This document shows positions 2,667 through 64,000 of a DNA stretch of 64,000 nt, in pieces (position 1 is the first letter of the stretch; each line of letters opens with the position of its first letter). Location: positions 416,001 through 480,000 of the forward strand of contig CAWHHI010000004.1 in NCBI GenBank assembly GCA_963829055.1, read 5' to 3'. Position numbers and translations under genes: made by a program. The notes below the pieces were generated by a model. The model saw only the letters and a program-made list of their open reading frames with translations, searched no databases and was not told where the DNA came from. This DNA comes from an uncultured Gemmatimonadaceae bacterium (lineage in GTDB: Bacteria > Gemmatimonadota > Gemmatimonadetes > Gemmatimonadales > Gemmatimonadaceae).

Positions 2667-2678
2667 CCTCCCTCGCTG

Positions 2679-3420: not shown

Positions 3421-3428
3421 CATACGAC

Positions 3429-3465: not shown

Positions 3466-3488
3466 CCTGTCGCTGTTCCCGTCGTCGC

Positions 3489-5843: not shown

Positions 5844-5987
5844 CGCGGCGCTCCGCGGTCACCGTTTCACGAGTGCGTTTGGCATCGAGCGGTGCCGCTC
5901 GATCTCGCGCACGACGAACTCCGATCAACGCTCCTCTCATGCGATGGCGAGGACAGAATGCTCGGTTCGTGAACGGCGGAACAGCGA

Positions 5988-6524: not shown

Positions 6525-6880
6525 GTGTTCGCCAAAGAGTCCGGTCTGCTGCAAGGCACGCTCGAGCTCCTCGTACTCAAGACGCTCTCGTGGGGACCGA
6601 TGCACGGCTACGGGATCGCGAGCTGGATCGAGAGCGCGACGAGCGACGTCCTCCGCGTGGAGGAAGGGCTCGCTCTATCCCGCGCTGTACCGCATGACGC
6701 GCAAGGGTTGGATCGCCGGCAAGTGGGGCACGAGCGAGAACAACCGGCGCGCGAAGTTCTACCACCTCACGCCCGGAGGGACGGCGCCAGTTCGTCGAGC
6801 AGACGACGGGGTGGCAGCGCTTCGCCGCGGCCGTGAATCAGGCGGTGGACACGACACGAGCGCCCAGTTGGGCGCGGTGA
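6525..6880 (+). CDS. PadR family transcriptional regulator (frameshifted)
   Basis: [24 protein letters not shown], then [10 protein letters not shown]...[13 protein letters not shown] in the next frame. Confidence 0.92.
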
Positions 6881-6891
6881 CCAGAGCGACC

Positions 6892-9581
6892 ATGCGTGAG
6901 AAATTGCAGAAAGGCGACGGTGGTCGCGGCGGGCGTCCCTTCGAGCCCAAGCCACAGGTCGAAGTCGACAGCGAGCTCGCGTTCCACCTCGAGGAGCGCG
7001 TGCGCGATTACGTGGCGCGCGGCATGGACCCCGTCGCGGCACGTGCGGCGGCGCTCGAGCGCTTCGGCGACGTGACGAGCGTCCGCGACGAGTGCACGCA
7101 GCTGCTCGCGGAGGAGCGCCGCGCCGTGGCCCGTCGCGACTGGCTCGACGACCTGCGGCAGGATCTGCGGTATCGGCGTCCGCTCCGCGGTGCGCGCTCC
7201 GCTGTTCTCGCTGCTGGCGATCGTCACGCTGGCGCTCGGCATCGGCGCGAACGCCGCCGTCTTCGGCGTCGTCAAATCGGTGCTGCTGAACGCGCTGCCG
7301 TACGCGGACGCGGACCGCCTCGTGCGCGTGTATGCGCGCATGGAGGATGGGACTATGGAACGGTCCTCCATGAGCGCCGGCGCGATCACGGACTTCAGTG
7401 CGCGACAGCGCTCGTTCTCGCGCGTCGCCCCATTCTACCGTGAGAACGTTCGACGTCACGTACGCGGCCGACGGCGGCCCGCGCGTCATCAGCGCGACGC
7501 TGGTCGGAGCGGGCTTCTTCCAGACCCTCGGCGTGTCCGGCGCTCCGAGGGCGCCTGCTGCGCGACGAGGACATGAAGACCGGCGCGCCTGACGTCGTCA
7601 TGCTGAGTTGGGCTGCATGGCAGCGTGAGTTCGGCGGCGACCCACGCGCGGTCGGGAAGTCGATGCGCATCGACGGCGAGGCGCAGGAGATCGTCGGCGT
7701 CCTGCCACGCGGATTCGTCGGGCCGAATGGGTGCGGCGGACCTCTGGTTTCCGCTCGATCTCGGACCGGCGCTCCGCGACCCTGTTCGCGCGCGCAAGCA
7801 ACACTGGCTCAGTCTCGTCGGGCCGGCTCGCGCCTAACGCCACCGTCGCGTTCGGCACAGCGCGAGATCGCGGCCATCGGCACGGACCTCGCGCGCGAGC
7901 ATCCCGAGGCGCAGGGCGGCATGGCGCTCCGAGGCTTCCCATTGCGCGACGACATGGTCGGCGAGACGCGCACGCCACTGCTCGTGCTCATGGCGAGCGC
8001 CGGCCTCGTGCTCGTGATCACGTGCGCCAACCTCGCCGGCGCTCTGCTGTCCCGCTCGTTGAGTCGGCGCAAGGAGTTCGCCGTTCGCATCGCGCTCGGC
8101 GCCGGGCGCGGAGCCGACTCGTCAGGCAGCTGTTGACCGAGAGTCTCGTCCTCGCGCTCGCCGGTGGCGGCGTCGGACTGCTGCTCGCCATGGCTCGGAC
8201 TCGCGGCCGTGCGCTCGCTCGCGTCGACGGCGCTTGCCCGCATACGCGGAGCTGTCGCTGGACCCGGTGGCCGTTGCGGTGACCGGCCTGCTCGCCCTCG
8301 TCACGGGTGTCGCGTTCGGCGTCGCGCCAGCAGCTGGCTGCCGGCCGCGCCAACACGCAGGGAACGCTGCGCGACGAAACGCGCGGCGCGAGCGAGAGCC
8401 GCCGCACGCGACGACTCCGCGGCCTGCTCGTCGCCGGGCAGATCGCGCTGTGCGTGAGCCTGCTCGCTGGCGCGGGCCTGCTCGTTCGCAGTCTGTGGAC
8501 GATGGCCACGGCGCCGCTCGGATTCGACCCGCATGGCGTGCTCACGATCGCCGTGCAGTTACCGGGGCGGACGTATACGTCGACGCCGGCACGCGCCGCG
8601 ATTCTTCGAGCAGTTCGAGCAGCGCGCTGCGCGCGATTCCCGGCGTGCGCGACGTGGCGGACGTGAGCGAGCTGCCGACGCCGAACATGAATCGCAACGG
8701 GCTGACGATCGAGGGCCTGACGTGGCCTGCTGGCGAGGGACAGCCGTTCATCGCGTCCGAGATCGTGTCCGACGACTACTTCCGCACGATGCGCATTCCG
8801 CTTCGAAGCGGGCGTACCTTCGGCCCGGCTGACCGGGACAGCACGCAGCGGGTAGTCGTGATCAGCGAGGCGATGGCGCGTCGGTACTGGCCTAACGGGA
8901 ACGCCGTCGGCGCCCGTATCCGTATGGGACCGGCCGAGGTGGCGCCGTGGGCACAGGTGATCGGCATCGTGGGCGACGTGCGCACTGACCCCGCGCGTCC
9001 CGTCCCGGAGCCGATGACGTACACGTCGAGCCGGCAGGACGCGTGGGGAGCCCGGACGCTCCTGATACGAACCGACGGCGATCCCCTCGCGCTCGTGAAG
9101 CCGGTGCAGCGCGAGTTGACGGCACTCGACGCGTCGATTCCCATCCGACGCCGCGGCGCCGATGGAAACCTTGCTCGCCGATCAGCTTGCGGGTCGTCGC
9201 CTGCCGGTGGTGCTCATGATGGCGTTCGGTGTCCTGGCGCTGCTGCTCGCGTCGGTGGGCGTGTACGCGATGTTCGCGAGCATGGCGGCGGCGAGGGAGC
9301 GCGAGTTCGGCGTCCGGGTGGCACTCGGCTCGAGCCGAGGCGCGATCGCGGGGCTGGTGCTGAGGCAGGGTGGCGTCTGGATGATTGCCGGCCTGGTCGC
9401 GGGGGCAGTGGGTGTGGTGCTGGTCGCGCGCGGTCTCGGCGGGCTGCTGTACGGCGTGACGCCGTTCGACCCGATCGCGTTAGGCGTCGCCGGCACGACG
9501 CTCATCGTGTCCGCGGTGGTGGCGCTGCTGGTTCCGGTGCGTCGCGCGACGCGGGTGGATCCGGTGAGTGTATTGCGGTAG
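6892..9581 (+). CDS. ADOP-type duplicated ABC/MacB-like permease (frameshifted)
   Basis: [69 protein letters not shown]; follows PadR as is typical. Confidence 0.92.
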
Positions 9582-43130: not shown

Positions 43131-44318
43131 CTAACCAGTCGCCGAACGACGACGTGGAACTTTGCCGTTCTTCCCAGTTCGCTCTTTGCTCTTCTGCGCC
43201 GACTGTCCGACGGCGATCGGCACGATGTCCGGTACGTCAACCGGCTCGTTGCCGCAGCCGCCACCCTGCTTCGGCTGCTTGTACACGTACCGCTCGCCCT
43301 GGTAGTTGCGGAACGTGACCGAGTCCTCGGTAATCTCCTCCACGTACTCCGGCAGCAGCGGCACCTTGCCGCCTCCACCAGGCGCGTCGATCACGAAATG
43401 CGGGACCGCGAGACCTGACGTCCAGCCGCGCAGTGCCTTGATGATCTCGAGGCCTTTCTGGACCGTCGTGCGGAAGTGCTCACCGCCCGCGACCTGATCG
43501 GCCATGTAGATGTAGTAGGGACGCACGCGCGCTTTGAGCAGCTCGTGCATCAACTTCATCATGATCTTGGGGTCGTCGTTCACGCCGCGCAGCAGCACGG
43601 TCTGGCAGCCGAGCGGGATGCCGGCCTTCGAGAGCATGTCGAGCGCCTGACGCACGCGCGGCGTGAGCTCGTCGGGATGGTTGAAGTGGGTGTTCATGTA
43701 CACCGGATGGTACTTCTGCACCATCTCGCAGAACTCCGGCGTTATGCGCTCGGGGAGGTGCGAGGTGATGCGGCTTCCGATGCGGATGATCTCGACGTGC
43801 GGGATCGCGCGCAGGTTCTGAAAGAGATACTCGAGGCGTCGATCGCTGAGCATCATCGGGTCGCCGCCGGACATGATGACGTCGCGGATCTCCGGATGCT
43901 GCCGGATGTACTCGAACGCCGACTCGTACTGGTTGAGTGGAATCTTCTCGGGGTCGCCGACCTTGCGACGCCGCGTGCAGAAGCGGCAGTAGCTCGCGCA
44001 GACGGGGCTCACGAGGAACAACACGCGATCCGGATACCGGTGCGTGATGTTCGGCACAGGCGAGTCCGCGTCCTCATCGAGCGAGTCGATGACTCCGTCG
44101 ACGATGTCGAGCTCCTGAACCGTCGGGACATACTGCTGCCACATGGGGTCGCCGACGCTCTTGATCTGGTCGAGCGCGGACGGCGTGATGCGCATCTGAA
44201 AGTTCTCGAATGCCGGACGCAGCGCTTCGACATCAATGACGTCGTGCCCGAATTTTTCCGCCAGCTTGTCCAGCGTAGCAACGGCGTCGTCTTTCAGGAT
44301 CTTCTGCCACTCGCTCAT
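43131..44318 (-). CDS. kamA: KamA family radical SAM enzyme (lysine 2,3-aminomutase-like)
   Basis: THRYPDR, CASYCRFCTRRR (CxxxCxxC), SGGDP, HFNHP, QTVLLRGVND, DAPGGGGK (PLP Lys). Confidence 0.93.
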   Translation of the reverse strand: MSEWQKILKDDAVATLDKLAEKFGHDVIDVEALRPAFENFQMRITPSALDQIKSVGDPMWQQYVPTVQELDIVDGVIDSLDEDADSPVPNITHRYPDRVLFLVSPVCASYCRFCTRRRKVGDPEKIPLNQYESAFEYIRQHPEIRDVIMSGGDPMMLSDRRLEYLFQNLRAIPHVEIIRIGSRITSHLPERITPEFCEMVQKYHPVYMNTHFNHPDELTPRVRQALDMLSKAGIPLGCQTVLLRGVNDDPKIMMKLMHELLKARVRPYYIYMADQVAGGEHFRTTVQKGLEIIKALRGWTSGLAVPHFVIDAPGGGGKVPLLPEYVEEITEDSVTFRNYQGERYVYKQPKQGGGCGNEPVDVPDIVPIAVGQSAQKSKERTGKNGKVPRRRSATG

Positions 44319-44926
44319 GCAACCGCTCCCCAGCCCTGTCGAGGGCTACCTGCCAACCGTTTGGTGAGGATGATCCGATCGTCTTCGGGCGCGTAGAACT
44401 CGCGAACGCGAGCTGCCTCGACGTAGCCGCGTCGGAGGTAGAATCCTCGCGTCGCGGTGTAATCGGATCGGGACGATGTTTCAACGACCAACATCCGAGC
44501 GTGCAGCGCTTCCAGTCTGCGTTCCACCTCTGAGAGCAACACGGTACCACACCCGGTTCCCTGCGCAGCGCGATCGACCGCGATCCAGTACAGGTCGAAC
44601 GTTCGATCAGTGCCCATAGAGGGGCCATAACAGGCAAACCCAACTAGCCGGGGACTGGGGACCGGGGACTGGGGACTCGGCTGGGACAGCGCATCGGCCC
44701 TAAGCGACAGATCCTCAGTCCCCAGTCCCCAGTCCCCAGTCCCGTGCTGTGCGGCAAAGGCGCCGCACAGCACGTAGTCCTCGCCGGCGAACGACTCGTC
44801 GAAGAGCTCGAGCGCCACGTCGACTTCTTCCTCGCGGAAGTTCTCCGTGCTGCGGAGGATCTCGGCGACACGCTCGCGATGACTCGCCGCGAGCGGACCA
44901 ACGATGATGCGACCGGCAGCGCTCAC
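44315..44926 (-). CDS. GNAT family N-acetyltransferase with in-frame repeat-derived insert
   Basis: FREEEVDVALELFDE, GFACYGP, DLYWIAV, QGTGCG, VETSSR, FYLRRGY; GTG start overlaps the upstream stop. Confidence 0.9.
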   Translation of the reverse strand: MSAAGRIIVGPLAASHRERVAEILRSTENFREEEVDVALELFDESFAGEDYVLCGAFAAQHGTGDWGLGTEDLSLRADALSQPSPQSPVPSPRLVGFACYGPSMGTDRTFDLYWIAVDRAAQGTGCGTVLLSEVERRLEALHARMLVVETSSRSDYTATRGFYLRRGYVEAARVREFYAPEDDRIILTKRLAGSPRQGWGAVA

Positions 44927-45945
44927 CCCACCGCCTCGACGCCTGAGAGTCGTTGCTTGCGAGCCCAACGGTCTTCGGACGCCACCCGCGGCTGCGTGAA
45001 CGCCTGCTCGCAGACGAGCCGCACGAGCGCCGGGTAGTCCATGCCGGCGATGCGCGCCATGCGTGCGAGACCCGCGGTCGGCGAGAAATCCGGATTCGCG
45101 TTCACCTCGAGAATCCACGGACGCATGGCTGCATCGATGCGCATGTCCACGCGGCCGTAGCCGGTGCCGCCGACCGCGCGCCACGCCGCGAGCGCGATGC
45201 GTCCGAGCTCAGCTATCAGCGCGTCAGGCAGATCCGCCGGACAACGCGGCACAGAGCCCATGTCCTCGTCGCTGCCCGTCTCCCACTTCGAGCGATACGA
45301 CACGATGCGCCAGTAGCGATCGGGCATCGCGGAGAAGTCGATCTCGGCGACGGGCAGCACCTGGTCGGCGACGATGCCGACGTTCACTTCGCGGCCAGAG
45401 ATGAAGCGCTGGACGATGACGTCATCCCATTCCTCGTGCATCTCGGCGACCCGTGCGTTGAGTGCGCGCACGGATCGCACGACGGAGCGCTGCTCGACGC
45501 CGAGCGATGCGTCTTCCGCGGCGGGTTTGCAGATCGCGGGGAAGCCAACGACCGGCAACGGTTCACCAACGCGGGCGACGCCCCATCGCGGCACGGGAAG
45601 CTTCGCGGCGTCGAGCAGCGTGTTCACGACGTTCTTGCGGAGGCACACCGACGTCGTGAGGCTGCCGCTGCCCGTATAGGGAATGCTGAGCAGCTCGAGC
45701 GTCGAGATGACCGCGGATTCGAGCGAGGCCACGCCGTCGATGCCTTCGCAGAGATTGAAGGCGAGGTCCGGCTTCGCGCGGCGCACGCGTTCGATCCAGC
45801 GTCCGTCGGGATTCACGGGAACGCGGATCGCTTCGTGTCCGTCACCCGCGAGTATGGCCTCGACTGCTTCAACTGTCTCGAGGATGGCGAGGTCAGGCGA
45901 CTTTCCAAGCGCCGAGATGCCATCGAAGAGCACGACAACTTTCAT
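44923..45945 (-). CDS. D-Ala-D-Ala ligase-like ATP-grasp enzyme
   Basis: FNLCEG, PYTGS, KPAAEDASLG, YGRVDMR, LEVNANP. Confidence 0.92.
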   Translation of the reverse strand: MKVVVLFDGISALGKSPDLAILETVEAVEAILAGDGHEAIRVPVNPDGRWIERVRRAKPDLAFNLCEGIDGVASLESAVISTLELLSIPYTGSGSLTTSVCLRKNVVNTLLDAAKLPVPRWGVARVGEPLPVVGFPAICKPAAEDASLGVEQRSVVRSVRALNARVAEMHEEWDDVIVQRFISGREVNVGIVADQVLPVAEIDFSAMPDRYWRIVSYRSKWETGSDEDMGSVPRCPADLPDALIAELGRIALAAWRAVGGTGYGRVDMRIDAAMRPWILEVNANPDFSPTAGLARMARIAGMDYPALVRLVCEQAFTQPRVASEDRWARKQRLSGVEAVG

Positions 45946-45992
45946 GTGGAGCTCCGTCCCAGAATTCCCAAGATTTCGTGTCGACGATCGAT

Positions 45993-47277
45993 TCACCGCC
46001 ACATCGCAGCGGTGGCGACGCCACTCGTTGCGATGCCCAGCTCGACGCCCTGCCGTTCCGCGGCGTGAAGCAAGCACGCCTGAATGAGCTCGTCGTAGCT
46101 CATACCGGCGGCACGCGCCGCTTTCGGAAAGCAGGAATTGTCCGCGGGGTTGGGGAGAATCCCGGGAAGGGGATTGACCTCGACCACGTTGGGCTTGCCC
46201 GCCGCATCCAGTCGGACGTCGATCCGCGACCAGTCACGACAGCCAAGCACGCGGTAGGCGCGGAGTACGACCTGTTCGATCGCACACCGCAACTCCTCAG
46301 TGATCCGCGCGGGACATTCGAAAATCTCGAGAGGCTTTTCGGGGCGATCCCAGATCCACTTCGCCTCGAAGCCGTAGACGGGAAGCGCGCCTTCGGGGAG
46401 CGCTTCGAAGTTCATGCCGACGATGGGCAGTACGCGTGCGTCATCGTCGTTGCCCAGCACTGCACAGGTGAACTCGGCGCCGGGGAGATACTCCTCGATG
46501 AGTACGGGTTGCTGGTAACGCTCGAGGAGAAACTCGACCTGCGCGTGGAGCTGTTCTGGTGTCTCGCAGTAATTCGCTTCCGTTATTCCCTTGGACGATC
46601 CTTCGTGGATCGGCTTAACAAAAACGGGGAATGGGGACTGGGGACTCGGGAATCGGGGACTGGATCTAGCCGCTCCGCGATGCGCGACCGGCGCGCAGCG
46701 TCGAGTCCCCAGTCCCCAGTCCCCAGTCCCCGCGAGTACGCACGACACTGAACGCCGCCGTCGGCACGCCGTGAAACGCGAGCACCTCTTTCGTTCTCGC
46801 CTTGTCGAGGCAGAGTGACAGCGTGAACGGATCGCTCGCCGAATACGGAATGCCGTAGAACTCGCAGATCGCGGGGATGTGTGCTTCGCGATTCACGCCG
46901 TTCAGTCCTTCGGCGATGTTGAAGACGATGTCGGGTCGTGCGTCGCGCAGGTTCTGCGGGAAGTCTTCGTTCGCTTCGAGGCGAATCACATCGCCGTAGG
47001 CGGCGAGGGCGGACGCGACGGCATCGATGGTGTCTGCGCTGTCCCACTCGGCGAACTCGTCATCGGCGGAGGTGGGGGGTGCGGGGGCGGCGAAGTCTCC
47101 CCCGACGGTGGCCGAGCGTGTGAGCTCGGACGACGCCGGTGCGGCGGAGTTCCGGGACGCGATGGCGTCCCGGCGACTACTGGGAGGCTCGTCGTCGCCG
47201 CGTGGCGTCTCGTCGTCGGGACGAGCGATCGCGGTCGACTCGGGCTTCTGGTTATAGGCGAATCCGATTCGCGGCAT
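45993..47277 (-). CDS. D-Ala-D-Ala ligase-like ATP-grasp enzyme (frameshift at internal repeat)
   Basis: AEWDSADTI, FNIAEG, CLDKARTK, then KPIHEGSSKG, WSRIDVR, EVNPLPG in another frame. Confidence 0.92.
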
Positions 47278-51559: not shown

Positions 51560-51686
51560 GTCATCCCGAGGAGCGCCAGCGACGAGGGACCTTCTGTGAT
51601 GTCATCGTAGCCGGCTGGCCACGAGTACTTCACACAAGATCCCTCGCTGCCGCTCGGGATGACACGTGCTGCCGCTCGGGATGACA
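51560..51686. repeat. REP/MITE-like palindromic element (GTCATCCCGA family) with duplicated right end
   Basis: GTCATCCCGAG...GAGGGACCTT...AAGATCCCTCGCTGCCGCTCGGGATGAC, then GCTGCCGCTCGGGATGACA again. Confidence 0.85.
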
Positions 51687-51687
51687 T

Positions 51688-52521
51688 TTACTCCGCGTTC
51701 CCTCGCGCGACGACCACGGTCACGTTGTCGCTGCCGCCGCCCTCGAGTGCGGCGTCGATGAGCGACTGCGCGGCTGTCTCCGGATCGTTGGTGCCGAGTA
51801 GCTGCGCGATACGCTCATCGGGGACGTGCTTGGTGAGGCCGTCGCTGCAGAGCAGCAGCGTGTCGCCTTCCGTCAGATCGACGACGCCCACGCTCGGCAC
51901 GAGATCACCGCCAACGGCGCTCGAGAGCACGTTGTACAAGCCCGCCTTCTGCGCGTGCTGCTCCGTGACGGCGCCGATGTCGACGAGGTAGTCGCCCATC
52001 GTCTGATCGCGCGTGAACTGCTTGAGCGTCCCGTTGCGCAGGTAGTAGCCGCGACTATCGCCGACGTGCACGACGTAGGCACGCGGCCACACGACCGTGA
52101 CCATCGTGAGCGTCGTGGCGGGGCCACCCTGCGCCTGGAACATCGCCTTCAGCCGATCGTGCCCGCGCTCCACGGCGCGCGACAGATGATCGAGGAACGT
52201 CTGCTCGCGATCGACATCGAAGTCCTGCACGCAGCCGACGGCTTCGGCGAGATATTCGACGACCGACCGCACCGCGACGCCGCTCGCGAGCTTTCCACCG
52301 ATCGCGCCGCCGACGCCGTCGGCGACGACGAGGATGTTCACCTCCGGCCGGCGCAGTCGATCGAGGATCGTGGTGTCCTGCAGGTTCGTCGACCGAAGCT
52401 GAATCGATCGATGAAGAACCATGATCGCGAAGTGGTCCTCGTTCGCGGATCGCACCTTGCCGGCGTGCGAGAGCCCGACGGCATCGATGCGGACGGAGCG
52501 CGCGAGCGTTTCAGTTTCCAT
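51688..52521 (-). CDS. PP2C family Ser/Thr protein phosphatase
   Basis: GKVRSANED, VADGVGG, HVGDSR, LCSDGL, GGSDNVT. Confidence 0.95.
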   Translation of the reverse strand: METETLARSVRIDAVGLSHAGKVRSANEDHFAIMVLHRSIQLRSTNLQDTTILDRLRRPEVNILVVADGVGGAIGGKLASGVAVRSVVEYLAEAVGCVQDFDVDREQTFLDHLSRAVERGHDRLKAMFQAQGGPATTLTMVTVVWPRAYVVHVGDSRGYYLRNGTLKQFTRDQTMGDYLVDIGAVTEQHAQKAGLYNVLSSAVGGDLVPSVGVVDLTEGDTLLLCSDGLTKHVPDERIAQLLGTNDPETAAQSLIDAALEGGGSDNVTVVVARGNAE

Positions 52522-53047
52522 GACGCACCTGAGCCTGCGCGGCTGGCGCCGCGTCCTTCATTGTCGCGACGCCGATCCAGCGGAACGCGTCTTCGACACC
52601 TTCGCCCGTCTTCGCGCTCGTGGTCAGCGTGTGGAAGCCAGCCGCGATGAGCTTCGCGGTGTCAGCCGCCGTGAGCGTCCACTGATCCGTGAGGTCCACC
52701 TTGTTCAGCGCGACGATGGATGGAATATCACCGGCAGCCGAGCGCGTGAGCTCGCGGAGGTCGAACAGCTGGTCGAACGTTTCGCGGCGCGTGCCATCGG
52801 CCACGAACAGCACGGCGTGTGCGCCGCGCAGATAGCTCGCGGGAATCTCCTGCTCCGCGGTGCGACCCTCGACGTCCCAGAGCAGCAGGTTCACGTCAGT
52901 CTCACCGACGCGCACCTGCTTGCGATCGATCTTCACGCCGACGGTGCTGTGATACTTCGATGAGAAGAGCGAATGCACGTAGCGCTGCACGAGGCTCGTC
53001 TTGCCGGTTCCGAACACGCCCACCATGCACACTTTTTTCTGGATCAT
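52511..53047 (-). CDS. Rab/Ras-like small GTPase
   Basis: G1 GVFGTGKTS, G2 STVG, G3 WDVEG, G4 NKVD, G5 TSAKTG; stand-alone 178 aa. Confidence 0.92.
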   Translation of the reverse strand: MIQKKVCMVGVFGTGKTSLVQRYVHSLFSSKYHSTVGVKIDRKQVRVGETDVNLLLWDVEGRTAEQEIPASYLRGAHAVLFVADGTRRETFDQLFDLRELTRSAAGDIPSIVALNKVDLTDQWTLTAADTAKLIAAGFHTLTTSAKTGEGVEDAFRWIGVATMKDAAPAAQAQVRHGN

Positions 53048-54796
53048 CGCGCACGCTCCGCGCCGTTGACGGAAGCAGATGGCTGCGCCCGCACGACGAA
53101 CGATGCACTTCGGTTGAGCCGAGCACGCTCGGCGGGCGAATCGGCGGGTAGTGGATCGTTGTTGCCAATGGCGTCGGTCGTGATGCGCGCGGCGCCGATG
53201 CCGAGTGACACGAGGCGATCGCGAACGGCGAATGCCCGTCGGCGGCTGAGCGCGAGGTTGTCGCTCTCGGCGCCAGAGGGGTCGGCGCGGCCCACGACGG
53301 TCAGGCTCACGTTGTAACGGATCGTCGTGGCGGCGTCGAGGAGCTCTCTGATCTTCATCGCGACGAGGGCGGTTGCCGCAAGCGCTGATCTGTCGAGAGA
53401 GTCAGCACCTGGCGCGAAGAACGCATGCGAGCGCTCGATCTCAGCGGCGATCGCTTCCAGTGTCGGCCGGCAGCCCGGGTGCGACGCGCGAGAAATCGAC
53501 GGAGCCGACTCCAGCGAGGGCGGGGGCGACCGACTCTGCGCGCACGATCCAGAACGCCGGCGCGCGGCCGGCGACACTCAGGGTATCGCCGTTCAATGAG
53601 AACGTGACACCGACAGGCGGCGCCAATACTCGTCGAGCGCGCGCGAGCAGCAGCGCGGGCTCGGTCGATACATACGGCTCCCAGTGTGCGACGACGTCGT
53701 TGGTGTCGACGCCCCTGCTCGCGAGCAACAGCGATGGATTGCGGGCGAGCGGATCTCGCATGCCGGTGAGGTGCCACTTTCCGCCGTCGCGCTCACTGCG
53801 AATCACGACGATGCCTGGTTCGGCCTCGAGGCGCGTCATGGCCGTGTTCCACTGTCGACCGCCGCGCGTCGCCCACCAGGACAGCGCGGCGACGATGAGC
53901 AGAACGGGAATGGCCCACGCGAATTTCCGTAGCCCAGGCTTCGATGCCGCACGGTCCGTCGACAGCACCGTCTCGATGCATTCTTCGAGCAGCGGCTGCG
54001 TGGATGTGAACGCGGTCGCATCGCCATTGAAGGATGCGAGCGGATTCGACCACTGCAGGTGAATCCTCTCGACGGTCGTCTGCAACTTCACGGGCAACGT
54101 GTTCGGCGGCGTTCCACGCACGACCGCGGCGATGTACGCCTGCGGTCCGGGCTCCACGAGCACGGTGAGATCGCCAGCCGCGAACGCGCGCAGCTCGCCG
54201 GTGTGCTTCGGCTCGAACGAGTCATTCACGAAATCGCCGATCGCCGTCAGCATTCCCGAGATGAGATCGGCGTCGCCTGACGAGTCCTCGGGTACGTGCG
54301 CGAGCAGGAGCCCCGTCTCTGCATGGACGAGGAAGACCTGCTCCACGCGATACACGAGCGCGTGACGCATGACGATCTGCGCGAACGAGACGCCCGTGCG
54401 CCACGACTCGATGCGCCATCGAATGCCCTGCGGCGAGAAGCTGTGCTCGATGGCGCGATTGATCGTGTTGACCAGCCCCGCCATCGTCTCGGCGATCGCC
54501 TTGCGGATCGATGGGCCGAGGACCGGGAAGATCGCGGTGGCGATCTCTTGCGGGTTGCGGCGCACCGACTCGCTGATCGCGCATTCGACTGTCGGCGCGA
54601 GCGCAATGCCGAGCTGTCGATCACGATTGGTGCGCTGCATGATCGCCTGAGGCAGATGCTCGGCGATCTCGTCGGGCGTCAGCTCGAACGTGTCGAGTCG
54701 GCGGCGAAGCTCGTCGAGTTGCCGCCGCTCGCCGCCGAACAGCAGATCGCGGAGTTCGGTGAGCTCGCGAACGCTTAGATCACCGTCATCCGACAC
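53044..54796 (-). CDS. Bitopic membrane protein with C-terminal OmpA-like peptidoglycan-binding domain (one frameshift)
   Basis: Helical N-terminus, TM FAWAIPVLLIVAALSWW, then GRADPSG..NLALSRRRA..RLNRS OmpA motifs in the next frame. Confidence 0.88.
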
Positions 54797-54798
54797 GG

Positions 54799-55440
54799 TC
54801 AGCTCCGCGGAGCCTTCGCGGGCGTGCGTGAGTCACCACCGAGTCGCGTTGCCATCTCGGAGAATACGCTGACGATGGCGGAGACGTCGGTCTTGTCGGT
54901 GCGGAGCGAGGCGACTTCGCGATTGAGATCGCTCGTGACGCGCTGCGAGAGTCGTTCGATCTCGGCGGTGATGGCGCGCGACTGCTGCATGATCTGATCG
55001 CGAATTTCCGCATCGGCCATGCCGGTGAGCTCTTCGAGCTTCACGTGCCGCTTCTCGAGTGAACGCAGCACTTCCTTGAGCTCGGCCGACAGCGCTTTGA
55101 GCTCCTCGGTGCGCTTCGTCCGCTCGGCGACGAGTCGCTCGCCGAGCACCTCGGCTTCGTGCTTGGCGCTGGCGTCGACCTCGGCGAGTTGCTGCGAGAA
55201 GTCGGTGCGCATGGACGCCTGCTCGCGCATGAGGCGCTCCTCGAGCCCTTGCAGGCGCGACTCGACGGCGCGCATCTGTCCGCCGAACAGGATGTCTCGG
55301 ACCTTGTCGAGACTCTCGGGCGCGGTGTCGTTAGGCGGAAGGTCCGCTGGGCGAGTCACCGCCATCACCACCGGCGCCGGCGCGGCTGGCGCCGGAGTAG
55401 TCCGCCCGTTTCCGGGACGGTTGTTCTCGATCCTGGCCAT
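54799..55440 (-). CDS. Coiled-coil hypothetical protein
   Basis: SLDKVRDILFGGQMR followed by a long E/R/L-rich heptad region. Confidence 0.85.
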   Translation of the reverse strand: MARIENNRPGNGRTTPAPAAPAPVVMAVTRPADLPPNDTAPESLDKVRDILFGGQMRAVESRLQGLEERLMREQASMRTDFSQQLAEVDASAKHEAEVLGERLVAERTKRTEELKALSAELKEVLRSLEKRHVKLEELTGMADAEIRDQIMQQSRAITAEIERLSQRVTSDLNREVASLRTDKTDVSAIVSVFSEMATRLGGDSRTPAKAPRS

Positions 55441-55544: not shown

Positions 55545-55710
55545 CGGGCTGCACGCTGCGCTGCACGCTGCTTTTGCCGACGGCTGCAAGCGCGGCAGCT
55601 ACGCCGCCATCGCGCCATCAGCCATCAGCTGACGCGCAGCGTCGCCCAGCCCCAGCCCGCCAGTCCCAGTCCCCAGTCCCGATTCCCGAGTCCCCAGTCC
55701 CGATTCCCGA
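55545..55710. repeat. Intergenic short tandem repeat mosaic (GCTGCAC, GCCATCA, AGTCCCC/GATTCCC)
   Basis: Directly visible tandem units; the last tract abuts the S9 peptidase stop. Confidence 0.7.
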
Positions 55711-55711: not shown

Positions 55712-57760
55712 CTACTGGGCCACCGGCTTCAGGTATCGGTCGTACCACTTCAGGTATCGATCCAGCCGATCCACCCGATAGCTCGGCAGGGTGATCCCGT
55801 GGAAAGAGTTCGGGTAGATCACGAGCTGCGTGTCGATTCCCAGTGACTTGAGCGCCTGATACATCTGCTCGCTGCCGGCCGTGGGGACGTTGAAGTCCTT
55901 CTCGCCGCTCATGAACAGCGTTGGAGTCTTGATGCGGTCGGCGTGGAAGAACGGATACGAGACTTTCATCCAGGCGTCCGGGTTCTTCCACGGGGCGCCG
56001 AGCTCGGTCTCGTACTGCAGGATGTACTGATCCACGCCGTACATGGACGTCTGCAGCGCGCTTCCGGCGCCGCTGATGGCCGCCTTGAAGCGCGGCGTGG
56101 TTGCGATCGTGTAGTCCGTCGTGATCCCGCCGTAACTCCAGCCGCCGATGCCCAACCGGTCCGGGTCGGCGATGCCCTTCGAGATGACGTAATCGGTCGC
56201 GGCGAGGACATCGATCACTTCCTTGTTTCCCCAGTCGCCGGAGATGGCGTTCATGAACTTCTCGCCGCGGCCGTTGCTACCACGGTAGTTCGGCGACACA
56301 ACGACGTAGCCGTTGGCGGCGAACAGCTCACGCTCGAAGTTGAACGAGTACTGATCCTGCCCGGTCGGACCACCGTGGATCCGCAACAGCGTCGGCATCT
56401 TGCCGCTCGAGCCCGCGGGGCGCGTCACCACGGCGTGCACGTCGGCGCCGTCCGGCGTCTTGAACTCGATGCCTTCGGTGGTGCCGAGCTGAATCTCCGA
56501 AAGCCACTCGTCGTTCTGGTGCGAGAGCGGCCGGAGCGTGCCGTTCTCCAGGGCGTGAATTTCCGGCATCTCGGTCGACGTCGATGCGAGAACGGCGAGC
56601 TTGCCCGCCCGGGCCCATGGAGACGTTCGAGACCACGCGTGGTCCATTCGTGAGCTTCTCGACCGGGCCGCCTGTCGCCTTGATGCGCGCGACGTACTGC
56701 GTGCGATCGTCGGTCACAATGAAGAGCAGGGAAGCGCCATCGGCCGTCCAACGTGGAGACGTCACGGGCCGATCGAGCGATTCGGTGAGGAGGCGTGGCT
56801 CGCCACCGGCCGCCGGAATCACGGCGACGCGATACTGGTCGTAGATGGACATCGTCTTCGACCCACCGCGAACGTACGCGATCGACTTTCCGTCCGGGCT
56901 CCACGCCAGCTTGCTGCCGCTGTTGTTGTCGTCGCCCTCGAACATCGTTAGGCGTCGCATCTCCGCGCCCGGGACGTGCGTCGATCACATAGATGTCCGC
57001 GTTGATGCTGCGATCGGGATCCGGCGAGCGGTCGCTGACGAAGGCGATCATCTTCCCGTCCGGCGACCACGACGGGTTGGACTCGTCATACTTGCCCGCC
57101 GTGAGCACTTCCGACTTCTTCGCCGCGACGTCGAACAGGTACAGGTGGCTGCGCTGGTTGCCGAGGTAGCCCTGGATGTCCTGCTTGAAGTGGTAGCGAT
57201 CGAGGACGATCGGCTTCGGTGCCTTCGCCTTCGTGGAGTCAGCGGTGCTGGCGGTATCTTCGGGGTCGTCGACGCTGAGGACGAGGCGCGTGCCGTCGGG
57301 CGACCATTCGTAGGCGCTGACGCCGCCCTTGATCTCGGTGAGACGCGTGGCCTCGCCACCGCGGCGATCGAGTAGCCAGACCTGGCCGCCCTTGCCGCCG
57401 TCGCGCGATGAGATGAAGGAGAGGTAGCGGCCGTCGGGACTCCACCGCGGCTGGCTCTCGCCGTCCTTGGTGGACGTGATGCGCAGATTCTCCTTGCCGT
57501 CCCAACTGGCCATCCACACGTCGGTGTCGTTCTTGTCGCGTGCGGAATCGGCCACGGTGACGGTGTAGGCGACCCACTTGCCATCAGGCGAGATCTGCGG
57601 GTCGCGAACATCGCGGACGCGGAAGATGTCGGTGGCGCGGAGCGGCCGCTTGGCGGCGCGCCGGGCGCGAGGCGTTAGGCGTGGTGGGCGACGTCCTCGG
57701 CCCCTGGGCGATGGCGGCGCTCGCGGCGGCGGTGACAGCGATGACTGACAGAATGCGCAT
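55712..57760 (-). CDS. S9 family peptidase (prolyl oligopeptidase/acylaminoacyl peptidase, frameshifted)
   Basis: PD40 repeats; IHGGP, NYRGS, GWSYGG, GEKDFNV, FHG. Confidence 0.95.
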
Positions 57761-57821
57761 GGGTGCGGAGGTCACGAGAGTCAGACGAAAATCGGCGCTC
57801 GGCGCCGGTTGAGTTGGCGGA

Positions 57822-58274
57822 TCATGCGTTAGGTGGCACGACCGCGGTGGCTTCGATCTCGATTTCGGCGCCGGGCTCGAGCAGCGTCGAGACGACGACG
57901 ACGGACATGGCAGGGTAGTGGCGGCCGAAGATCTCGCGGTATGCGGCCCCGATCGCTCGCGCTCGCGGAGGTACGCTTCGCGACCTGTGACGAACCAGGT
58001 GAGCCTGACGAGATGTGCGGGCTCGGCGCCAGCCGGCGGCGAGCACGGGCCACGATATTCACGAACGCCTGACGCGCCTGCGCGGCCATGCCACCCGTCG
58101 ACGACGCGCTCGGTGATGGGATTCCACCCGATCTGCCCGGACAGGAACAGCGTGCGCCCTTCGGCGGAGACGGCGTGAGAGTAGCCCGAGCCGCGTGGCC
58201 ATCCGTCGGGAATCGGGAATCGGGAATCGGGAATCGGGCGCGGGATCGATCTCCTCGGTGGGCTCCTCGCTCAT
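57822..58274 (-). CDS. RidA/YjgF family protein (frameshifted)
   Basis: [40 protein letters not shown]. Confidence 0.88.
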
Positions 58275-60013
58275 GGCGCCTCCCGATGGGCGTCGTTCCG
58301 CGCGACTGCGTCTTCGATTCCCGATTCCCGCCGCCCGGTTCGCCGGGCCCCGCCGATTCCCGATGTTCCCGCAAACGAAATCTCTGCAACTTCCCCGTGT
58401 CGGTTCTCGGCAGCTTCTCCACGAACTCGATCCGTCGCGGGTACTTGTACGGCGCGATCTCGGCCTTCACGAAATCCTGCAGCTCGCGGGCGAGCTCGGG
58501 GGTGGCGGCGCACCCCGGCGCGCACGACAATGAATGCCTTCACGACGTGACCGCGGTCCTCGTCAGGCGCGGCGACGACGCCGCACTCCTGCACCGCGCG
58601 ATGCTCCAGCAGCACGTTCTCGACCTCCGCGCCCGACACGTTGTGTCCGCCCGTAATGATCATGTCGTCCGTGCGCGCGACGTACCAGAAGTAGCCCTCG
58701 TCGTCCTGACGGAACGAGTCGCCGGTGACGTTCCAGCCGTTCTCGACGTAGCCGCGCTGACGCTCGAGATCGCGCGAGGTAGCGGCAGCCGGTCGGACCG
58801 CGGACCGCGAGCCGACCGATCTCGCCACGCGGTACCTCGGAGCCGGTCTCGTCGACGCAACGTGCCTCGTACCCGGGCACCACGCGACCCGTCGATCCCG
58901 GGCGAATGTCGTCGCCGCTGGCCGAGATGAAAATGTGCAGCATCTCCGTCGCGCCGATGCCGTCGATGATGCGCATGCCCGTCGCCTTTTCCCACGCCTC
59001 GAACGTCGCGCGCGGCAGATGCTCACCGGCGGACACGCATTTCGTGAGCGACGAGATGTCGTACCGGTCGAGCATGCCGAGCATCGCGCGATAGGCCGTC
59101 GGCGACGTCCAGCAGACGGTCGGCCGTGCTCGTGAATGCCGTCGATGAGCTGCGGCGGCGCGGCCTGCTCGAGCAGAAGCGACGCTGCGCCCACGTCGCA
59201 TCGGGAACAGCACGAGCCCGCCGAGACCGAACGTGAACGCGAACGGCGGCGACCCGCAGCAGAATGTCGTCGGCGAGACAGCTTCGCCACCGACCGCGGG
59301 AAAGCAGTCGCAGATCGCCAGCACGTCGCGATGAAAGTGCATCGTGCCCTTCGCGTTGCCGGTCGTGCCTGACGTGAACGCGATGAGCACGGTGTCGTCC
59401 GCGGCGGTGTCGCAGTTCGCGAACGTCGCGGGCTTACCGACCATCATCGTCTCGAGCGAGCCGGGCATCGTTGGACGCGAAGTGAACGGTGCGTCCACCC
59501 GGTCGCGGCGCGCCCGCGCTCGTCTGACCTCATCGCGGTCTCGCACTCCGGCGCGAACCGCGCGTCGCATAACGCGAGCGAGATCTCCGCCTTGTCCGCG
59601 ATGTACGTCAGCTCGCGCACGCGCAGCAACGGCATCGTGCACACGACCACCGCGCCGACCTTCACGATCGCGAACCAGCACGCGACCATCATCGGCGAGT
59701 TCGGACCGCGCAGCAGCACGCGATTGCCGGGAACGACGCCCAGGTCGTCGACGAGCACGTGGGCGATGCGGTTCGACATCTCGAGCACGTCGCGATACGT
59801 CCAGCGTCCGCCGGGGAAGAGAAACGCCGTGCGGTCGCCGTCGCCTGCTTCCACCATGCGGTCGAGCAGCTCGGTCGCGCAGTTGAGCTGTGACGGGTAT
59901 GCGAGCTCGGGCAGCGACGCCGAAATCCATCGCGGCCACAGATCGGCCGGCGGCAGCTGGTCGCGGCAGAACGTGTCGACGTGCGCGGACACGCCGTGGG
60001 GCGCGTTAGGCAT
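58271..60013 (-). CDS. Benzoate/2-aminobenzoate-CoA ligase family protein (frameshifted)
   Basis: [63 protein letters not shown]. Confidence 0.92.
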
Positions 60014-60026
60014 CGTCGAGCGGGCT

Positions 60027-60140
60027 GTCATTCCGAGCGGACGGCCGTAGGCCGGAGTCGAGGAATCGCGATCGTCGAGAGGGCCCTCTGTCGGGAGTCG
60101 CGATTCCTCGACTGCGGCTTCGCGCTCCGCTCGGAATGAC
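60027..60140. repeat. REP/MITE-like palindromic element (GTCATTCCGAG...CTCGGAATGAC)
   Basis: Terminal inverted repeat plus inner AGTCGAGGAATCGCGA...TCGCGATTCCTCGACT; lies inside an operon. Confidence 0.85.
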
Positions 60141-60144
60141 AGGC

Positions 60145-61353
60145 TCACTCACCCTGCTCCTCCGCTTCGGCAATGATCTGGCCGGCGATCACGAGCTTCT
60201 GGATCTCGCTCGTGCCCTCGTAGATGCGCAACGCGCGGATCTCGCGATAGAGCCGCTCGACCGGTTCGCCGACCACCACTCCGCGGCCCGCCGAACAGCT
60301 GCACCGCGTCGTCGATCACGCGCTGGGCGGCCTCGGTCGCGAACAGCTTGGCCATCGCCGCCTCACGCGTCACACGCTCGGCGCCGGCGTCCCGTGTCCA
60401 CGCCGCGCGGTAGACCAGCAGCGCGCTCGCGTCGACCGCGGTCGCCATGTCGGCGAGCTTGGCCTGCGTCAGCTGAAAGTCCGCGAGCCGCTTGACCGAA
60501 CGCATGGCGCGAAATCGCGTGCGCCGTCGCTTCCGTCAACGCGCGGCGCGCGAAGCCAAGCGCCGCGGCGCCCACCGTCGACCGAAAGATGTCGAGCGTG
60601 CCGAGCGCGACGCGCATGCCCTTGCCTGGTTCACCGACGATCGACGCTCGCCGGGACGCGGCACTCGTTGAGCTCGAGCGTGCCGAGTGGGTGCGGCGCG
60701 TTGACCGCGATACGCTCGCTGACCGTCAGCCCCGGATTGTCGGCGTCCACCACCACCGCGACGAAGCTCGTTCTCGGCATCCATCGAGCCGCGCGAACAC
60801 GACGTAGAACTCCGCGATGCCGGCGTTCGAGATCCACGTCTTGCGACCGTCGAGCACCAGATCGCCGCCGTCGCGCCGTGCGTGGTTTGCATCGCCGACA
60901 CGTCGCTGCCGGCGGCGGCTCGGAGAGCGCGAACGCCGCGATCGCCTCGCCGGACGCGACACGCGGCAGATAGCGCTGCTTCAGCTCGTCGCTTCCGAAC
61001 TGAGAGATCGGACCGGAGCCCAAGCCCTGCATGCCGAAGGCGAAGTCGGCCATCCCGGACAGCTGACCGAGCGTCTCGCGAGCGAGGCAGATCGTCCGGA
61101 CGTCGAGGCGGGCAGGGCGCGAGGCCGTACGGCTCGGGCACCGACGTACTGCAGCCACCCGCCGGCACCGAGTCGCCGGACGATTTCGCGGAACGTGCCG
61201 TCTACGTCCTCCGGCTCGTGCGGCCACGAGCGGCGCGATTCGATCGGCCGCCCACGACCGAAGCTCGAGCGCGAACTCGCGATGCGCGTCCGTGAAGAAC
61301 GGCCACGCGAGGTGGCCGAGCGCGGACGGAGGGCGCGCCACGCTCGTGCTCAC
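60145..61353 (-). CDS. Acyl-CoA dehydrogenase (frameshifted)
   Basis: [58 protein letters not shown]. Confidence 0.93.
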
Positions 61354-61354
61354 G

Positions 61355-62194
61355 CTACTCGCCCGTGAACGCGGGTGTCGACGCGGTTCGCGAACGCGCG
61401 ATAGGCGCGCACGAAGTCATCGGTCTGCATGCAGATCGCCTGCGTCTGCGCCTCGGCCTCGATCGCCTCGTCGATTCCCATGTTCCATTCGTGGTGCAGC
61501 GCCTTCTTCGTCATCGCGTGCGCGAACGTTGGGCCCTCGGCCAGCGATTGCGCTAGCGCTCCGGCCTGTTCGGCGAGCTGTCTGCCGGGTCGACGAGGCG
61601 ATTGTAGAAGCCCCACCGCTCCGCTTCCGCACCGTCCATGAAGCGGCCGGTGTACAGCAGCTCCGACGCGCGTCCGTGGCCGATCACGCGCGGCAGGAGC
61701 GCGCATGCGCCCATGTCGGCGCCGCTCAGACCGACGCGCGAGAACAGGAACGCGACCTTGCTGCGCGACGTGCCGAGGCGCATGTCGCTTGCCAGCGCGA
61801 TAGCCGCGCCGGCACCGGCGCAGACGCCGTCGATGGCGGCGACGATGGGCTGCGGGCAATGACGCATGGCCTTCACGAGGTCGCCCGTCATCCGGGTGAA
61901 CGCCAGGATGTCGCCCGTTCGCCCGGACTCCTTCATCTGCACGAGCGGTCCAATGATCTCGTGCACGTCGCCGCCTGACGAGAAGTTTTCGCCGGCGCCG
62001 GTGACAATCACCGCGCGCACGTCGGTGACGTAGGAGAGGACGCGAAACGTCTCGGTGAGCTCGCCGTACGACTCGAACGTCAGCGGGTTCTTTCGCTCGG
62101 GCCGGTTCAGCGTGATGGTGGCGACGCGACCGGCGAGGTCCCAGCGAAAGTGGCGGGGACGAATGGTGGTGACGTCGATGCCGATCGGGGACAT
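61355..62194 (-). CDS. Enoyl-CoA hydratase/isomerase family protein (frameshifted)
   Basis: [39 protein letters not shown]. Confidence 0.93.
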
Positions 62195-62327
62195 TGAGTG
62201 TCGAGGTGTACCACGGTCGCGGTGAAGTTCAGGGCACTTACGGACGGTCGAGTGTAAGAGTCTAGCTGGCGACGCTCCCGTCGCGTAGGGTGTCGCGAGC
62301 GCGCGAGAATCCATTCGGGCGAGGGCC

Positions 62328-63797
62328 ATGCAGCTGATGGTGCGGGTTGCAACAATGCTGTCCGTCGTCATCGCGGCACACGCGCTGAGCGCGCAGGGTC
62401 CGCGGTCGACGGCCTCCGCGACCGGGATCGAAACCATCATCACGCGGCGTCGTGTTCGACAGTCTCGCCAATGCGCGGTCTCGCCGGCGCGACCGTGCAG
62501 ATCGCCGGATGCGACCGGAAAGGCGTGGACGAGCACCAAGGAAACCGACGGAACGGCCGCTTCGAGTTCGCCGACGTTCCCATCGGCACGTACCTGCTCG
62601 GGTTCTTTCACCCGAAGCTCGATTCGCTCGCGCTCTCGAGCCGACGTGCTGCGCGTGGACGTCCGGACGCGAGCAGCCGATGCGTCGTGCGGCTCGGCGA
62701 TCCCATCGGCGCGGACGATCGTCGCGTTCGATCTGCGGTGCGAAATCGGTCACCGATTCGACGGGCCTCTTCCTGGGGTACGTTCGCGGCGCGGACAACC
62801 TCAATGCCGCGCCCGAATGGCGTCGTAAGCGTTCGGTGGACCGAGATCGTCATCGAGAAGAAGTCGATTCGCTCGCGAGCTTCCGAGCGCGAATGCGTCG
62901 ACCGGACCAACGGGGCTGTACGCGATGTGTGGCATCCCCGCTGTCGACGCCGATCGTGCTTCAGGCCGCGAGTGAGGCCGACAGCAGCGGATCGTTCGAG
63001 GTCACCGTGCCCGCGACCGGCCTGCTACCATCGCGATGTGTTCGTCGCTCCGTTCACGCGCACGAAGGTGGCGATATCGGACTCGGCGCCGGCAGTGGAG
63101 CTGCTCCGCGGGCACGGGGCGGTTCGCGGCCGCGTGATCGGAACGAATGGTCGTCCGGTCGCAGGCGCGCGTGTGATGGTGTGGGGCACCGGCCTCGAGA
63201 CGGCAACCGATGGCGACGGCGAGTTCGCGCTCCAGCGGTCTTCCGGGCGGCACGCACACGCTCGAGGCACGCGCGGTGGGGTTCATGCCTGCGCGGACGC
63301 CGGTCGACATCGTGCAGGGGACGCCGGGCGCGACGGAGGTCGAGCTCACGAATTTCGGCATCACGCTCGACACGGTGCGAGTGTTCGGCGCAGCGCCTGT
63401 ACACGTCGAGGCGTGAGGCGGACTTCGAGCGACGTGTGCAGACGGGCACCGGCCACCTGATCGACGAGAAGGAGATCGAGAAGCGAAAGCCGATGGTCCT
63501 GACGGATCTGCTTCGCAACGTGCCCGGCGTGATGATCCTGCCGGACCAGCACTCGTGGGACGTCGCGTACATGCGTGGAGGGCAGAGCGTCCTCGGGAGC
63601 GGTCTCTGTCGCCCGGATCTCATGGTCGACGGCATTCGCGTCGCGAATGACGAATGTTCCCGCTCAACTCCATGGTGTCGACGACGGAGATTCGCGCGGT
63701 GGAGGTGTACGCCCACTCTGCCATGGTCCCGGCCGATCTCGCGTCCGCCAGCGGGTGCGGAGTGATCGTGATCTGGACGGGGGCGCGACGGAAGTAG
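62328..63797 (+). CDS. Carboxypeptidase regulatory-like repeat protein with C-terminal plug-like domain (frameshifted)
   Basis: [37 protein letters not shown], ends CGVIVIWT; no barrel. Confidence 0.8.
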
Positions 63798-63840
63798 CGG
63801 CGGCCAGTTTGCGAGCAACGTTAGGTATTCCGCAGTACGT

Positions 63841-64000
63841 GTCATCCCGAGCGCCAGCGAGGGACCTTCTGTGAGGTCATCGTAGCCGGCTGGCGTTCCT
63901 GCGACTCGGACCGGCGGAACGCAGAGCGCTCTGAACGCGCAGAGAACGCAGAAGAGAAATGAACAAATTGCTCTTTGCCGTTTTCTGCGTGGTCTGAGCG
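63841..64000. repeat. Truncated GTCATCCCGA-family element followed by CGCAGAG-type repeats
   Basis: 63841-63894 is nearly identical to 51560-51620; then AACGCAGAG..CGCAGAGAACGCAGA and a partly complementary TTCTGCGT. Confidence 0.75.

Follow-up and report, generated by a model that had tools for sequence, protein, structure and literature searches.

The stretch considered here, positions 51688 to 55440 of a window of 64,000 nucleotides (the window being the whole stretch of DNA that was analysed, from a genome labelled G000 and 85.9% complete), holds four genes which all lie on the minus strand according to the open reading frames of the window and their translations: a coiled-coil protein, a membrane protein, a stand-alone small GTPase of Rab-like type and a phosphatase. 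Their arrangement is that of the Group 1 Rup system, for which the order DUFY>DUFX:OmpA>Rup>output is given in the available text of Wuichet & Søgaard-Andersen (2014, Genome Biol Evol 7:57, PMC4316618). According to the same text Group 1 Rups lack the Gln of the G3 motif and are neighboured by a coiled-coil gene and by a gene with a domain of unknown function, often combined with a transmembrane (TM) segment and OmpA. Structural modelling indicates that this domain, DUFX, is almost certainly a longin domain which probably binds the GTPase.

The coiled-coil gene (54799..55440, 213 amino acids, the DUFY of Group 1 Rup loci) is separated by a 2-bp gap from the membrane gene (53044..54796), which shares an ATGA overlap with the GTPase gene (52511..53047, 178 amino acids), and the latter overlaps by 11 bp with the gene of the PP2C/PPM Ser/Thr phosphatase (51688..52521, 277 amino acids). 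These coordinates and junctions had been given in an earlier reading of the same letters (the original prediction) and proved to be exact; the protein segments quoted there, the WDVEG form of G3 and the motifs LRDLLFGG and VRDILFGG were all found in the translations. Pfam assigned Ras (E 8e-26), OmpA (PF00691, E 7.5e-12) and PP2C_2 (E 4e-13) to the window proteins. The closest named loci belong to Gemmatimonadaceae, and the genome holds one Rup match.

The domains which the original prediction placed in the membrane protein are present, but they do not form a single open reading frame in the window, where the frame ends after 451 amino acids at a stop at 53441 and the OmpA part sits in a different frame. 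The window carries one frame-shifting base more at 53460..53461 than the relatives L001, L002 and L005. Near-identical contigs without this base were found in 3/3 DNA runs compared, coming from three studies (X1, X4, X6), and the frameshift is therefore an assembly error; a pseudogene reading of the gene is rejected on account of these contigs together with the intact relatives (594-598 amino acids). After correction the protein comprises about 585 amino acids. It was also observed that the S9 peptidase gene upstream (55712-57700) is broken over three frames and that the open reading frames beyond it (57800-64000) look fragmented, thus indel errors are common in this assembly.

The membrane protein begins with an all-helical cytoplasmic region (residues 4-146; 54359..54787) bearing the LRDLLFGG motif and two arginines, R98 and R128, which are invariant in 147/147 aligned homologues. 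DUFX proper is followed by a single TM helix at residues ~292-310 (53867..53923), recognised by hydropathy and given its orientation by the putatively periplasmic OmpA domain. Then comes a periplasmic spacer (53477..53866) which is probably BON-like: positions 411-587 of the family profile match the BON+OmpA protein 2l26, and a Pfam BON match was noticed in 7/25 homologues scanned, above the cut-off in one. The OmpA-like peptidoglycan-binding domain (53110..53421) stands at the end. In a Mesorhizobium homologue (L196:4698-7763) the periplasmic spacer is matched four times and some family members reach ~1000 amino acids; since the spacer is repeated in some homologues, the length from membrane to wall varies by lineage. 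DUFX is not named by Pfam, NCBIfam or the ESM Atlas, where the matches (scores 0.85-0.87) are hypothetical proteins.

The coiled-coil protein, which carries an N-terminal VRDILFGxQ motif, gave weak coiled-coil-type matches only in family scans (Pfam, NCBIfam), and it is homologous to genes situated upstream of the OmpA protein in Mesorhizobium (E 1e-14) and Nostoc (E 4e-7). The N-terminal motif which it was said to share with the membrane protein is real, but it is short: the profile-profile match spans 33 columns (probability 18%, E 0.0013), and homology of both proteins beyond it is unsupported. Co-assembly of the two, as well as a part in polarity, division or stress, all of them put forward in the original prediction, stay conjectural.

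The GTPase shows the motifs G1 GVFGTGKT, T35, G3 DVEG, NKVD and SAK. Its catalytic Gln after G3 is missing, the sequence being D58-V-E-G61-R62, with Arg62 at the position of Ras Gln61. Positions 1-156 of Pfam Ras align to residues 5-158 and an MglA-type insertion between G1 and G2 is absent; the spacing from G10 to T35 is, as we take it from Ras numbering, that of Ras. When the Rup profile was compared with the PDB, the best 60 matches were Rab-type proteins, Rab23 being the best. The protein is 45% identical to the Rup of a Mesorhizobium locus and 36% to that of Nostoc, genera which stand on the published Group 1 list as available to us.

Fold of the cytoplasmic domain and its modelled contact with the GTPase

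The cytoplasmic part was modelled with AlphaFold2 on an alignment of 147 sequences (mean pLDDT 86.5, pTM 0.60). In the model the helical region is followed by the order ββ-α-βββ-αα at residues 147-278 (53963..54358), and DUFX is very probably a longin because this predicted topology fits the definition of the domain, namely ββ-α-βββ-αα with two C-terminal helices, in the available text of PMC3747258. The rows listed by Foldseek, with a best E of 1.4e-4, were without exception chains of longin, roadblock or Rag type. A second, independent structural search, which covered 48,161 chains, gave the VAMP7 longin as the top match (Z 12.8, root-mean-square deviation 2.5, 118 aligned) besides CPLANE (Z 12.2), Sec22 (11.9), a Loki longin (11.3), TRAPP 3cue_C (11.0) and Mon1/Ccz1 (10.5-11.0). 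Longins align over model residues ~146-281 including the last helix, and roadblock chains (Z 10-11) cover ~148-255 only, with their first 15-28 residues, i.e. the first helix, unaligned. A roadblock identity of DUFX is rejected on the predicted topology, as the order α-ββ-α-βββ-α with an N-terminal helix is not that of the model. The longin/roadblock-like fold put forward from the letters has thus been borne out and specified as longin, but its extent was larger than assumed (54358-53963 in place of 54050-54360) and includes the two C-terminal helices.

CPLANE, the second-best structural match, presumably contains the exchange factor of Rab23, which is the best match of the Rup profile; within ties, this pair of matches is probably a coincidence. 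Where a GP motif before β2 could stand the longin has G162-L163; a GP, G217-P218, is found in the β4-β5 loop instead. At residue 159 the 147 sequences show 75 Arg and 28 Lys, with small residues also present. There are also 36 short homologues; among the few names given for them, none is archaeal and none suggests a stand-alone form.

The complex was modelled from two copies of DUFX residues 1-282, Rup, GTP and Mg, in three runs and with three controls. The score was 0.64 in 3/3 runs and 0.00 in the best control, contact agreement was at least 98% and pLDDT of the partner at least 86; the score mark used is reached by 116/157 solved and 2/215 mismatched pairs, counts which are only roughly valid here. 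This speaks for the direct contact of the membrane-protein domain with the GTPase which the original prediction had proposed, and binding of Rup by DUFX can be considered probable on the basis of the model. The predicted GTPase-binding face of the longin is formed by the β1-β2 loop (160-164), α1 (177-192) and the loop 257-261 of one copy, to which the other copy adds residues 181-185, α1 of both copies being used. On Rup, residues 1-5, 36-42, 53-57 and 69-77 are engaged. In the available text of PMC3747258 the top single helix is the GTPase site of longin/roadblock platforms, and these work with no contact to the nucleotide. Conservation of the interface columns exceeds that of the other columns in the longin (0.76 vs 0.58, p 0.006) as well as in Rup (0.79 vs 0.57, p 0.0003, leaving out the G motifs).

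Distribution, linkage and the fourth gene

At E <1e-10 the cytoplasmic region has 2,949 relatives among 50%-identity representatives. It was found in 33/401 genomes of the window's phylum, in 45/401 genomes of the phylum of a Thiotrichales genome and in 5 plasmid records, and no relative was found in viral contigs. Loci were taken from 30/32 other positive genomes of the window's phylum and from 40/44 others of the second phylum; metagenome loci are the best 80 of 579 matches and are biased to close relatives. Rup is present in 111/116 loci with at least 700 bases after the membrane gene, and because of this the linkage of the membrane gene with Rup is not chance. Among the five loci without Rup, four have less than 950 bases of room and one 4.9 kb. 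In this survey of neighbourhoods the three core genes are kept together across phyla, as the original prediction required of a common system.

The fourth gene of the published loci is a signalling gene with an N-terminal invariant Gln, proposed in the available text of PMC4316618 to act in trans as a GTPase-activating protein (GAP). This N-terminal domain was rebuilt from related loci: the invariant Gln lies in an LQxAR helix, and the region before it folds like PAS (pLDDT 90.7), with nearly all 50 rows of PAS type and a best Z of 8.0, which is middling. In L006 (9131-9580) and its relatives the Gln-bearing region was predicted to consist of a PAS fold and a helix bearing Q-x-x-R, and a second PAS-like subtype exists. 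The Gln-PAS domain occurs in 32/40 Pseudomonadota loci, where it heads many different outputs. It was not found in the 85.9% complete genome of the window by two profiles or a genome search, and since the fourth gene there is a bare PP2C, the window locus is a variant of the Group 1 Rup system.

The phosphatase of the window has no extra N-terminal sensor domain and retains all five metal-binding motifs, which we take to be RxxNED, DGxGG, GDSR, DG and GxDN; it matches NCBIfam Stp1 at E 9e-48, below the family cut-off. Contrary to what had been supposed, PP2C does not belong to the system in general, for it accompanies 16/30 Gemmatimonadota-phylum loci (15 after Rup, one upstream; 15/29 when L058, with a split membrane gene, is left out) and 0/40 Pseudomonadota loci. 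Its overlap with the Rup gene is kept across two families, and its tree broadly follows the Rup tree as judged by eye. The remaining 14/30 Gemmatimonadota-phylum loci have neither PP2C nor Gln-PAS, and the Gln-PAS profile was unmatched in those 14 genomes.

In a tree of 78 Rups, calculated with no outgroup, the PP2C-linked Rups constitute one supported clade (37 rows, 99/94, three of the rows having no room to show a PP2C gene). The position of Ras Gln61 is Arg in 29, Lys in 4 and Ser in 1 of 34 PP2C-linked Rups (33/34 Arg/Lys), and Glu in 38/52 Gln-domain-linked ones. The sister of the clade is L052 (G333, 1679-6973), which looks transitional: a PP2C gene comes first, followed by the coiled-coil, membrane and Rup genes (Rup having Lys at 62) and then by a kinase gene that encodes two PAS-like domains, hence PP2C upstream and a Gln-PAS kinase downstream. 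In 120 loci, longin residue 159 and Rup residue 62 are basic/non-basic in 75 and small/basic in 33, both are basic in 8 and neither in 4; this reciprocal pattern is essentially that of one clade, so it does not count as independent covariation and serves as a lead only. Arg159 as a true arginine finger is unsupported, Arg and Lys being mixed among homologues at a position outside the confident contacts.

The Gln-PAS profile matched 6/35 genomes, three of which are of the PP2C type (G149, G109, G176). A relocated Gln-PAS partner in a PP2C-type genome was rejected for G149, where the match belongs to L152, a further Rup locus that is complete and has a Glu-type GTPase of its own. This canonical locus (117-2607) stands in the genome beside the PP2C type; among L151-L153, it was L152 that was examined.

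Several further variants were met. Rups with the catalytic Gln (DIYGQ) occur in L114, L118, L137, L141 and L142, beside short Gln-domain outputs with no evident enzyme. L188-L194 form a distant subgroup (longin identity 21-23%, G3 DTDG(D/N)), in which the last helix is divergent and the Gln-PAS domain was not matched. In one genus of the window's order (L061-L065, L067) tandem Rup genes from two separate subclades follow the membrane gene; these loci have no PP2C, no Gln-PAS gene was found in the locus or in the genome, and the tandem Rups possibly form a GTPase heterodimer. In G000 itself two nearly identical PP2C paralogs lie on the small contigs C15 and C2, a pair that is either a recent duplication or an assembly duplicate.

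Around the cluster, a short genome-wide repeat (51615..51686) comes directly after the stop codon of PP2C and delimits the cluster at its 3' end, itself lying outside the system; it is REP-like and has more than 200 copies in G000, with 221/264 BLAST pieces of at least 40 bases and very high depth. Short G-rich heptamer runs lie between genes at 55660-55710, two words having 88 and 77 copies. Three short contigs of one metatranscriptome agree with 54625-55369 except for 0-1 differences, weak RNA evidence that does not amount to a demonstration of transcription. Farther away, the genes at 43131-47277 appear by eye to be a KamA-like radical SAM gene, a GNAT gene and two D-Ala-D-Ala-ligase-like genes, presumably one cluster.

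Mechanism, alternatives and known systems

The reading which we favour, if only by a little over an even chance, is that of a Group 1 Rup module in which a wall-tethered longin platform recruits and switches Rup, with PP2C as a lineage-specific output. The membrane protein would cross the inner membrane once, so placed that OmpA at the end of the spacer holds peptidoglycan and the longin faces the cytoplasm. Two longins would form a platform gripping Rup with their top helices and the β1-β2 loop at β1, switch I/β2, β3 and the end of switch II, as longin/roadblock dimers grip Rabs and MglA. Such a platform may bring Rup to the membrane and set its nucleotide state with no catalytic residue of its own, most likely by GTP loading, in step with the condition of the membrane-to-wall tether, and the coiled-coil protein would be the scaffold. 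In most lineages active Rup would then address the PAS-helix domain with the invariant Gln at the head of a kinase, cyclase or phosphodiesterase. In the present clade of Gemmatimonadota PP2C would take the place of that partner, and as Rup has Arg at the position of the catalytic Gln, either slow hydrolysis is expected or the use of Arg itself. The dimer, the direction of regulation, the envelope input, the scaffold role and PP2C as output stand at about even chances.

GTP loading is preferred since in canonical loci the Gln output is already a candidate for the off-switch, and because the motifs of GAP longins are missing. A role of the longin as guanine nucleotide exchange factor (GEF) or recruiter comes close to an even chance; an MglB-like GAP is a clearly less likely role, though the chief rival to loading and more so in this clade, where Rup brings an Arg of its own, a plain anchor or effector an improbable one, and a longin with no functional contact with Rup is more improbable yet.

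Several points weigh against this reading. In L185, which has the membrane gene, no Rup match turned up although 4.9 kb of room is available. No sigma-70 promoter was found at the locus, and terminator-like sites are no more frequent than by chance. In sequence the resemblance to known longins is faint (Fuz_longin_1 in 3/100 members, best E 0.002; Robl_LC7 in 3/100) and the longin profile had no sequence match in the PDB at E <0.3; as this support is faint, the bacterial longin may share descent with eukaryotic ones or may have arisen by independent permutation of a roadblock. As regards the complex, its pass may reflect memory of solved longin/roadblock-GTPase complexes; the run (own alignments, ligand included) differs from the calibration set-up, pLDDT of chain 1 in the complex is 65 and the score does not cover the longin-longin contact. 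The conservation test is uncorrected for burial and uses the same alignments that fed the model. No confident contact touches the P-loop or the nucleotide, so the model does not discriminate between GEF, GAP and anchor. Finally, PP2C has no dedicated binding domain, two unlinked PP2C paralogs of G000 nest among the linked ones, and the PP2C link is one evolutionary event.

It is this single origin, together with the absence from Pseudomonadota loci, that gives some weight to PP2C as a passenger or upstream regulator, which in Gemmatimonadota came to lie beside the core of three genes on one occasion and is expressed along with it, not its output. The upstream position of PP2C in L052, where the canonical kinase follows Rup, and the close paralogs elsewhere in the genome fit such a view; nevertheless the overlap with the Rup gene has been retained across two families, and the arrival of PP2C coincides with the loss of Gln-PAS and the change at Rup 62, which leaves the passenger rather doubtful.

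A somewhat weaker candidate still, and an unlikely one, is that the longin dimer serves as an off-switch in the manner of MglB, i.e. as a non-catalytic GAP platform ordering switch II. In this clade it would position Arg62 of Rup as MglB positions Arg53 of MglA, and in canonical loci it would work with the Gln of the output protein and the basic residue in the β1-β2 loop of the longin. The geometry is the same as in MglB-MglA in a model folded with GTP-Mg, and the reciprocal 159/62 pattern would suit it. However, that pattern comes essentially from one clade, residue 159 is too loose for a finger and lies outside the confident contacts, and G162-L163 stand where eukaryotic GAP longins have their GP motif.

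The signal could also run in reverse, with Rup-GTP as the input and the longin protein as effector or receptor, as SRX is for SRβ; Rup would then control assembly or placement of the membrane-to-wall tether together with the coiled-coil protein, and the fourth gene would be a variable regulator. An interface on the switch/interswitch surface with no nucleotide contact agrees with this, as do the 14 loci with neither output and the residue at Rup 62, for Gln61Arg locks Ras in the GTP-bound state. The varied outputs headed by PAS-Gln beside Rup rather fit a signal leaving the GTPase, and in the available part of the published list six Bacteroidetes and four Chloroflexi loci have DUFX with no OmpA; reverse flow appears improbable. 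Decay of the locus in this strain, with a real frameshift that uncouples the longin from its wall anchor as the window sequence taken as given would say, is hardly credible in view of the base-free contigs, the intact relatives and the similarly broken neighbouring peptidase.

Returning to the recruiting and switching platform, a wider proposal may be ventured, though we hold it more doubtful than right. In many bacterial phyla a longin GEF, encoded in an operon and coupled to a receptor, would serve a Rab-like GTPase and read the membrane-to-wall distance; it would be a minimal, homodimeric counterpart of Mon1-Ccz1, TRAPP and CPLANE and possibly a relative of their ancestor. The Gemmatimonadota clade would have rewired it by dropping the Gln partner that acts in trans, moving the basic residue from the longin loop to the Gln61 position of the GTPase and coupling the switch to Ser/Thr dephosphorylation.

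The neighbourhood as such is already known. What the searched literature did not contain is the identification of DUFX as a longin, the modelled interface with Rup and the clade with Arg62 and PP2C. The statement of the original prediction that no characterised system resembles this one holds to the letter, yet a genomic description of the neighbourhood has existed since 2014 (available text of PMC4316618). The supplement of that paper, as far as available, lists 26 DUFX loci, none from Gemmatimonadetes, and its loci include all3030 of Nostoc PCC 7120 and mll3243 of Mesorhizobium loti, both of them laboratory strains. In its accessible text DUFX is left as an unknown domain and the word "longin" occurs 0 times. 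Within the accessible texts "Group 1 Rup" appeared in this paper alone, the wider search adding a mention in PMC4915359 only. The literature searched held no experimental follow-up of the system and no bacterial longin tied to Rup or OmpA. According to the accessible part of a 2013 review (PMC3747258) prokaryotes have no longin domains; longins were later placed in Asgard archaea (PMC10933270; bioRxiv 2020.10.19.343400), whose GTPase genes are generally not in operons with longins (PMC10933270, available text).

Rups have been called the closest prokaryotic group to Rab/Ras/Rho/Ran (available texts of PMC4316618 and PMC4915359). The DUFX longin is a candidate for their regulator on the modelled evidence. 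A bacterial longin beside a Rab-like GTPase, and predicted to bind it, could offer a two-protein soluble model for the working and origin of longin-Rab regulation. This is tempered by the neighbourhood being already in print, by a function that is inferred and by two 2026 preprints, according to whose accessible parts other prokaryotes too have longin/roadblock-like folds, and profilin/longin-like folds are a frequent companion of GTPases throughout life.

With the Group 1 Rup system the window shares a coiled-coil protein, a DUF-TM-OmpA protein and a Rab-like GTPase with no G3 Gln in the same order, and three of its proteins match Mesorhizobium and Nostoc loci of the same layout; it differs in its fourth gene, which is PP2C and not a Gln-bearing kinase or cyclase/phosphodiesterase, and in the Arg at the Gln position of Rup. 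FLCN-FNIP, GATOR1 and C9orf72-SMCR8 likewise set a longin fold next to a small GTPase. The GAP longins among these (FLCN/NPRL2/SMCR8) have, according to the available text of PMC12290439, a GP motif before β2 and a conserved Arg finger, in contrast to DUFX, in which there is no GP before β2 and no strictly conserved Arg finger was identified. MglA-MglB and the actinobacterial conservon resemble the system in that a bacterial small GTPase is encoded with a dimeric partner of longin/roadblock fold and contacted by the same face (predicted in the case of DUFX), but DUFX has the longin order of elements and is membrane-integral, and Rup is Rab-like with Asp in G3; four separate Roadblock genes lie elsewhere in G000, on a different contig. 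Longin/roadblock platforms can work either way, as GEF or GAP (available text of PMC13408092). With the eukaryotic Rab platforms the topology is shared: the DUFX longin resembles Mon1-Ccz1, TRAPP (Bet5/Trs23), CPLANE and BLOC-3 at Z 9-13, GTPase binding is predicted on the α1 face, and the Rup profile is closest to Rab23/Rab1. In contrast to these platforms, with which identity is 6-16% in the best rows, DUFX is the product of one gene, presumably a homodimer, single-pass and anchored to the wall.

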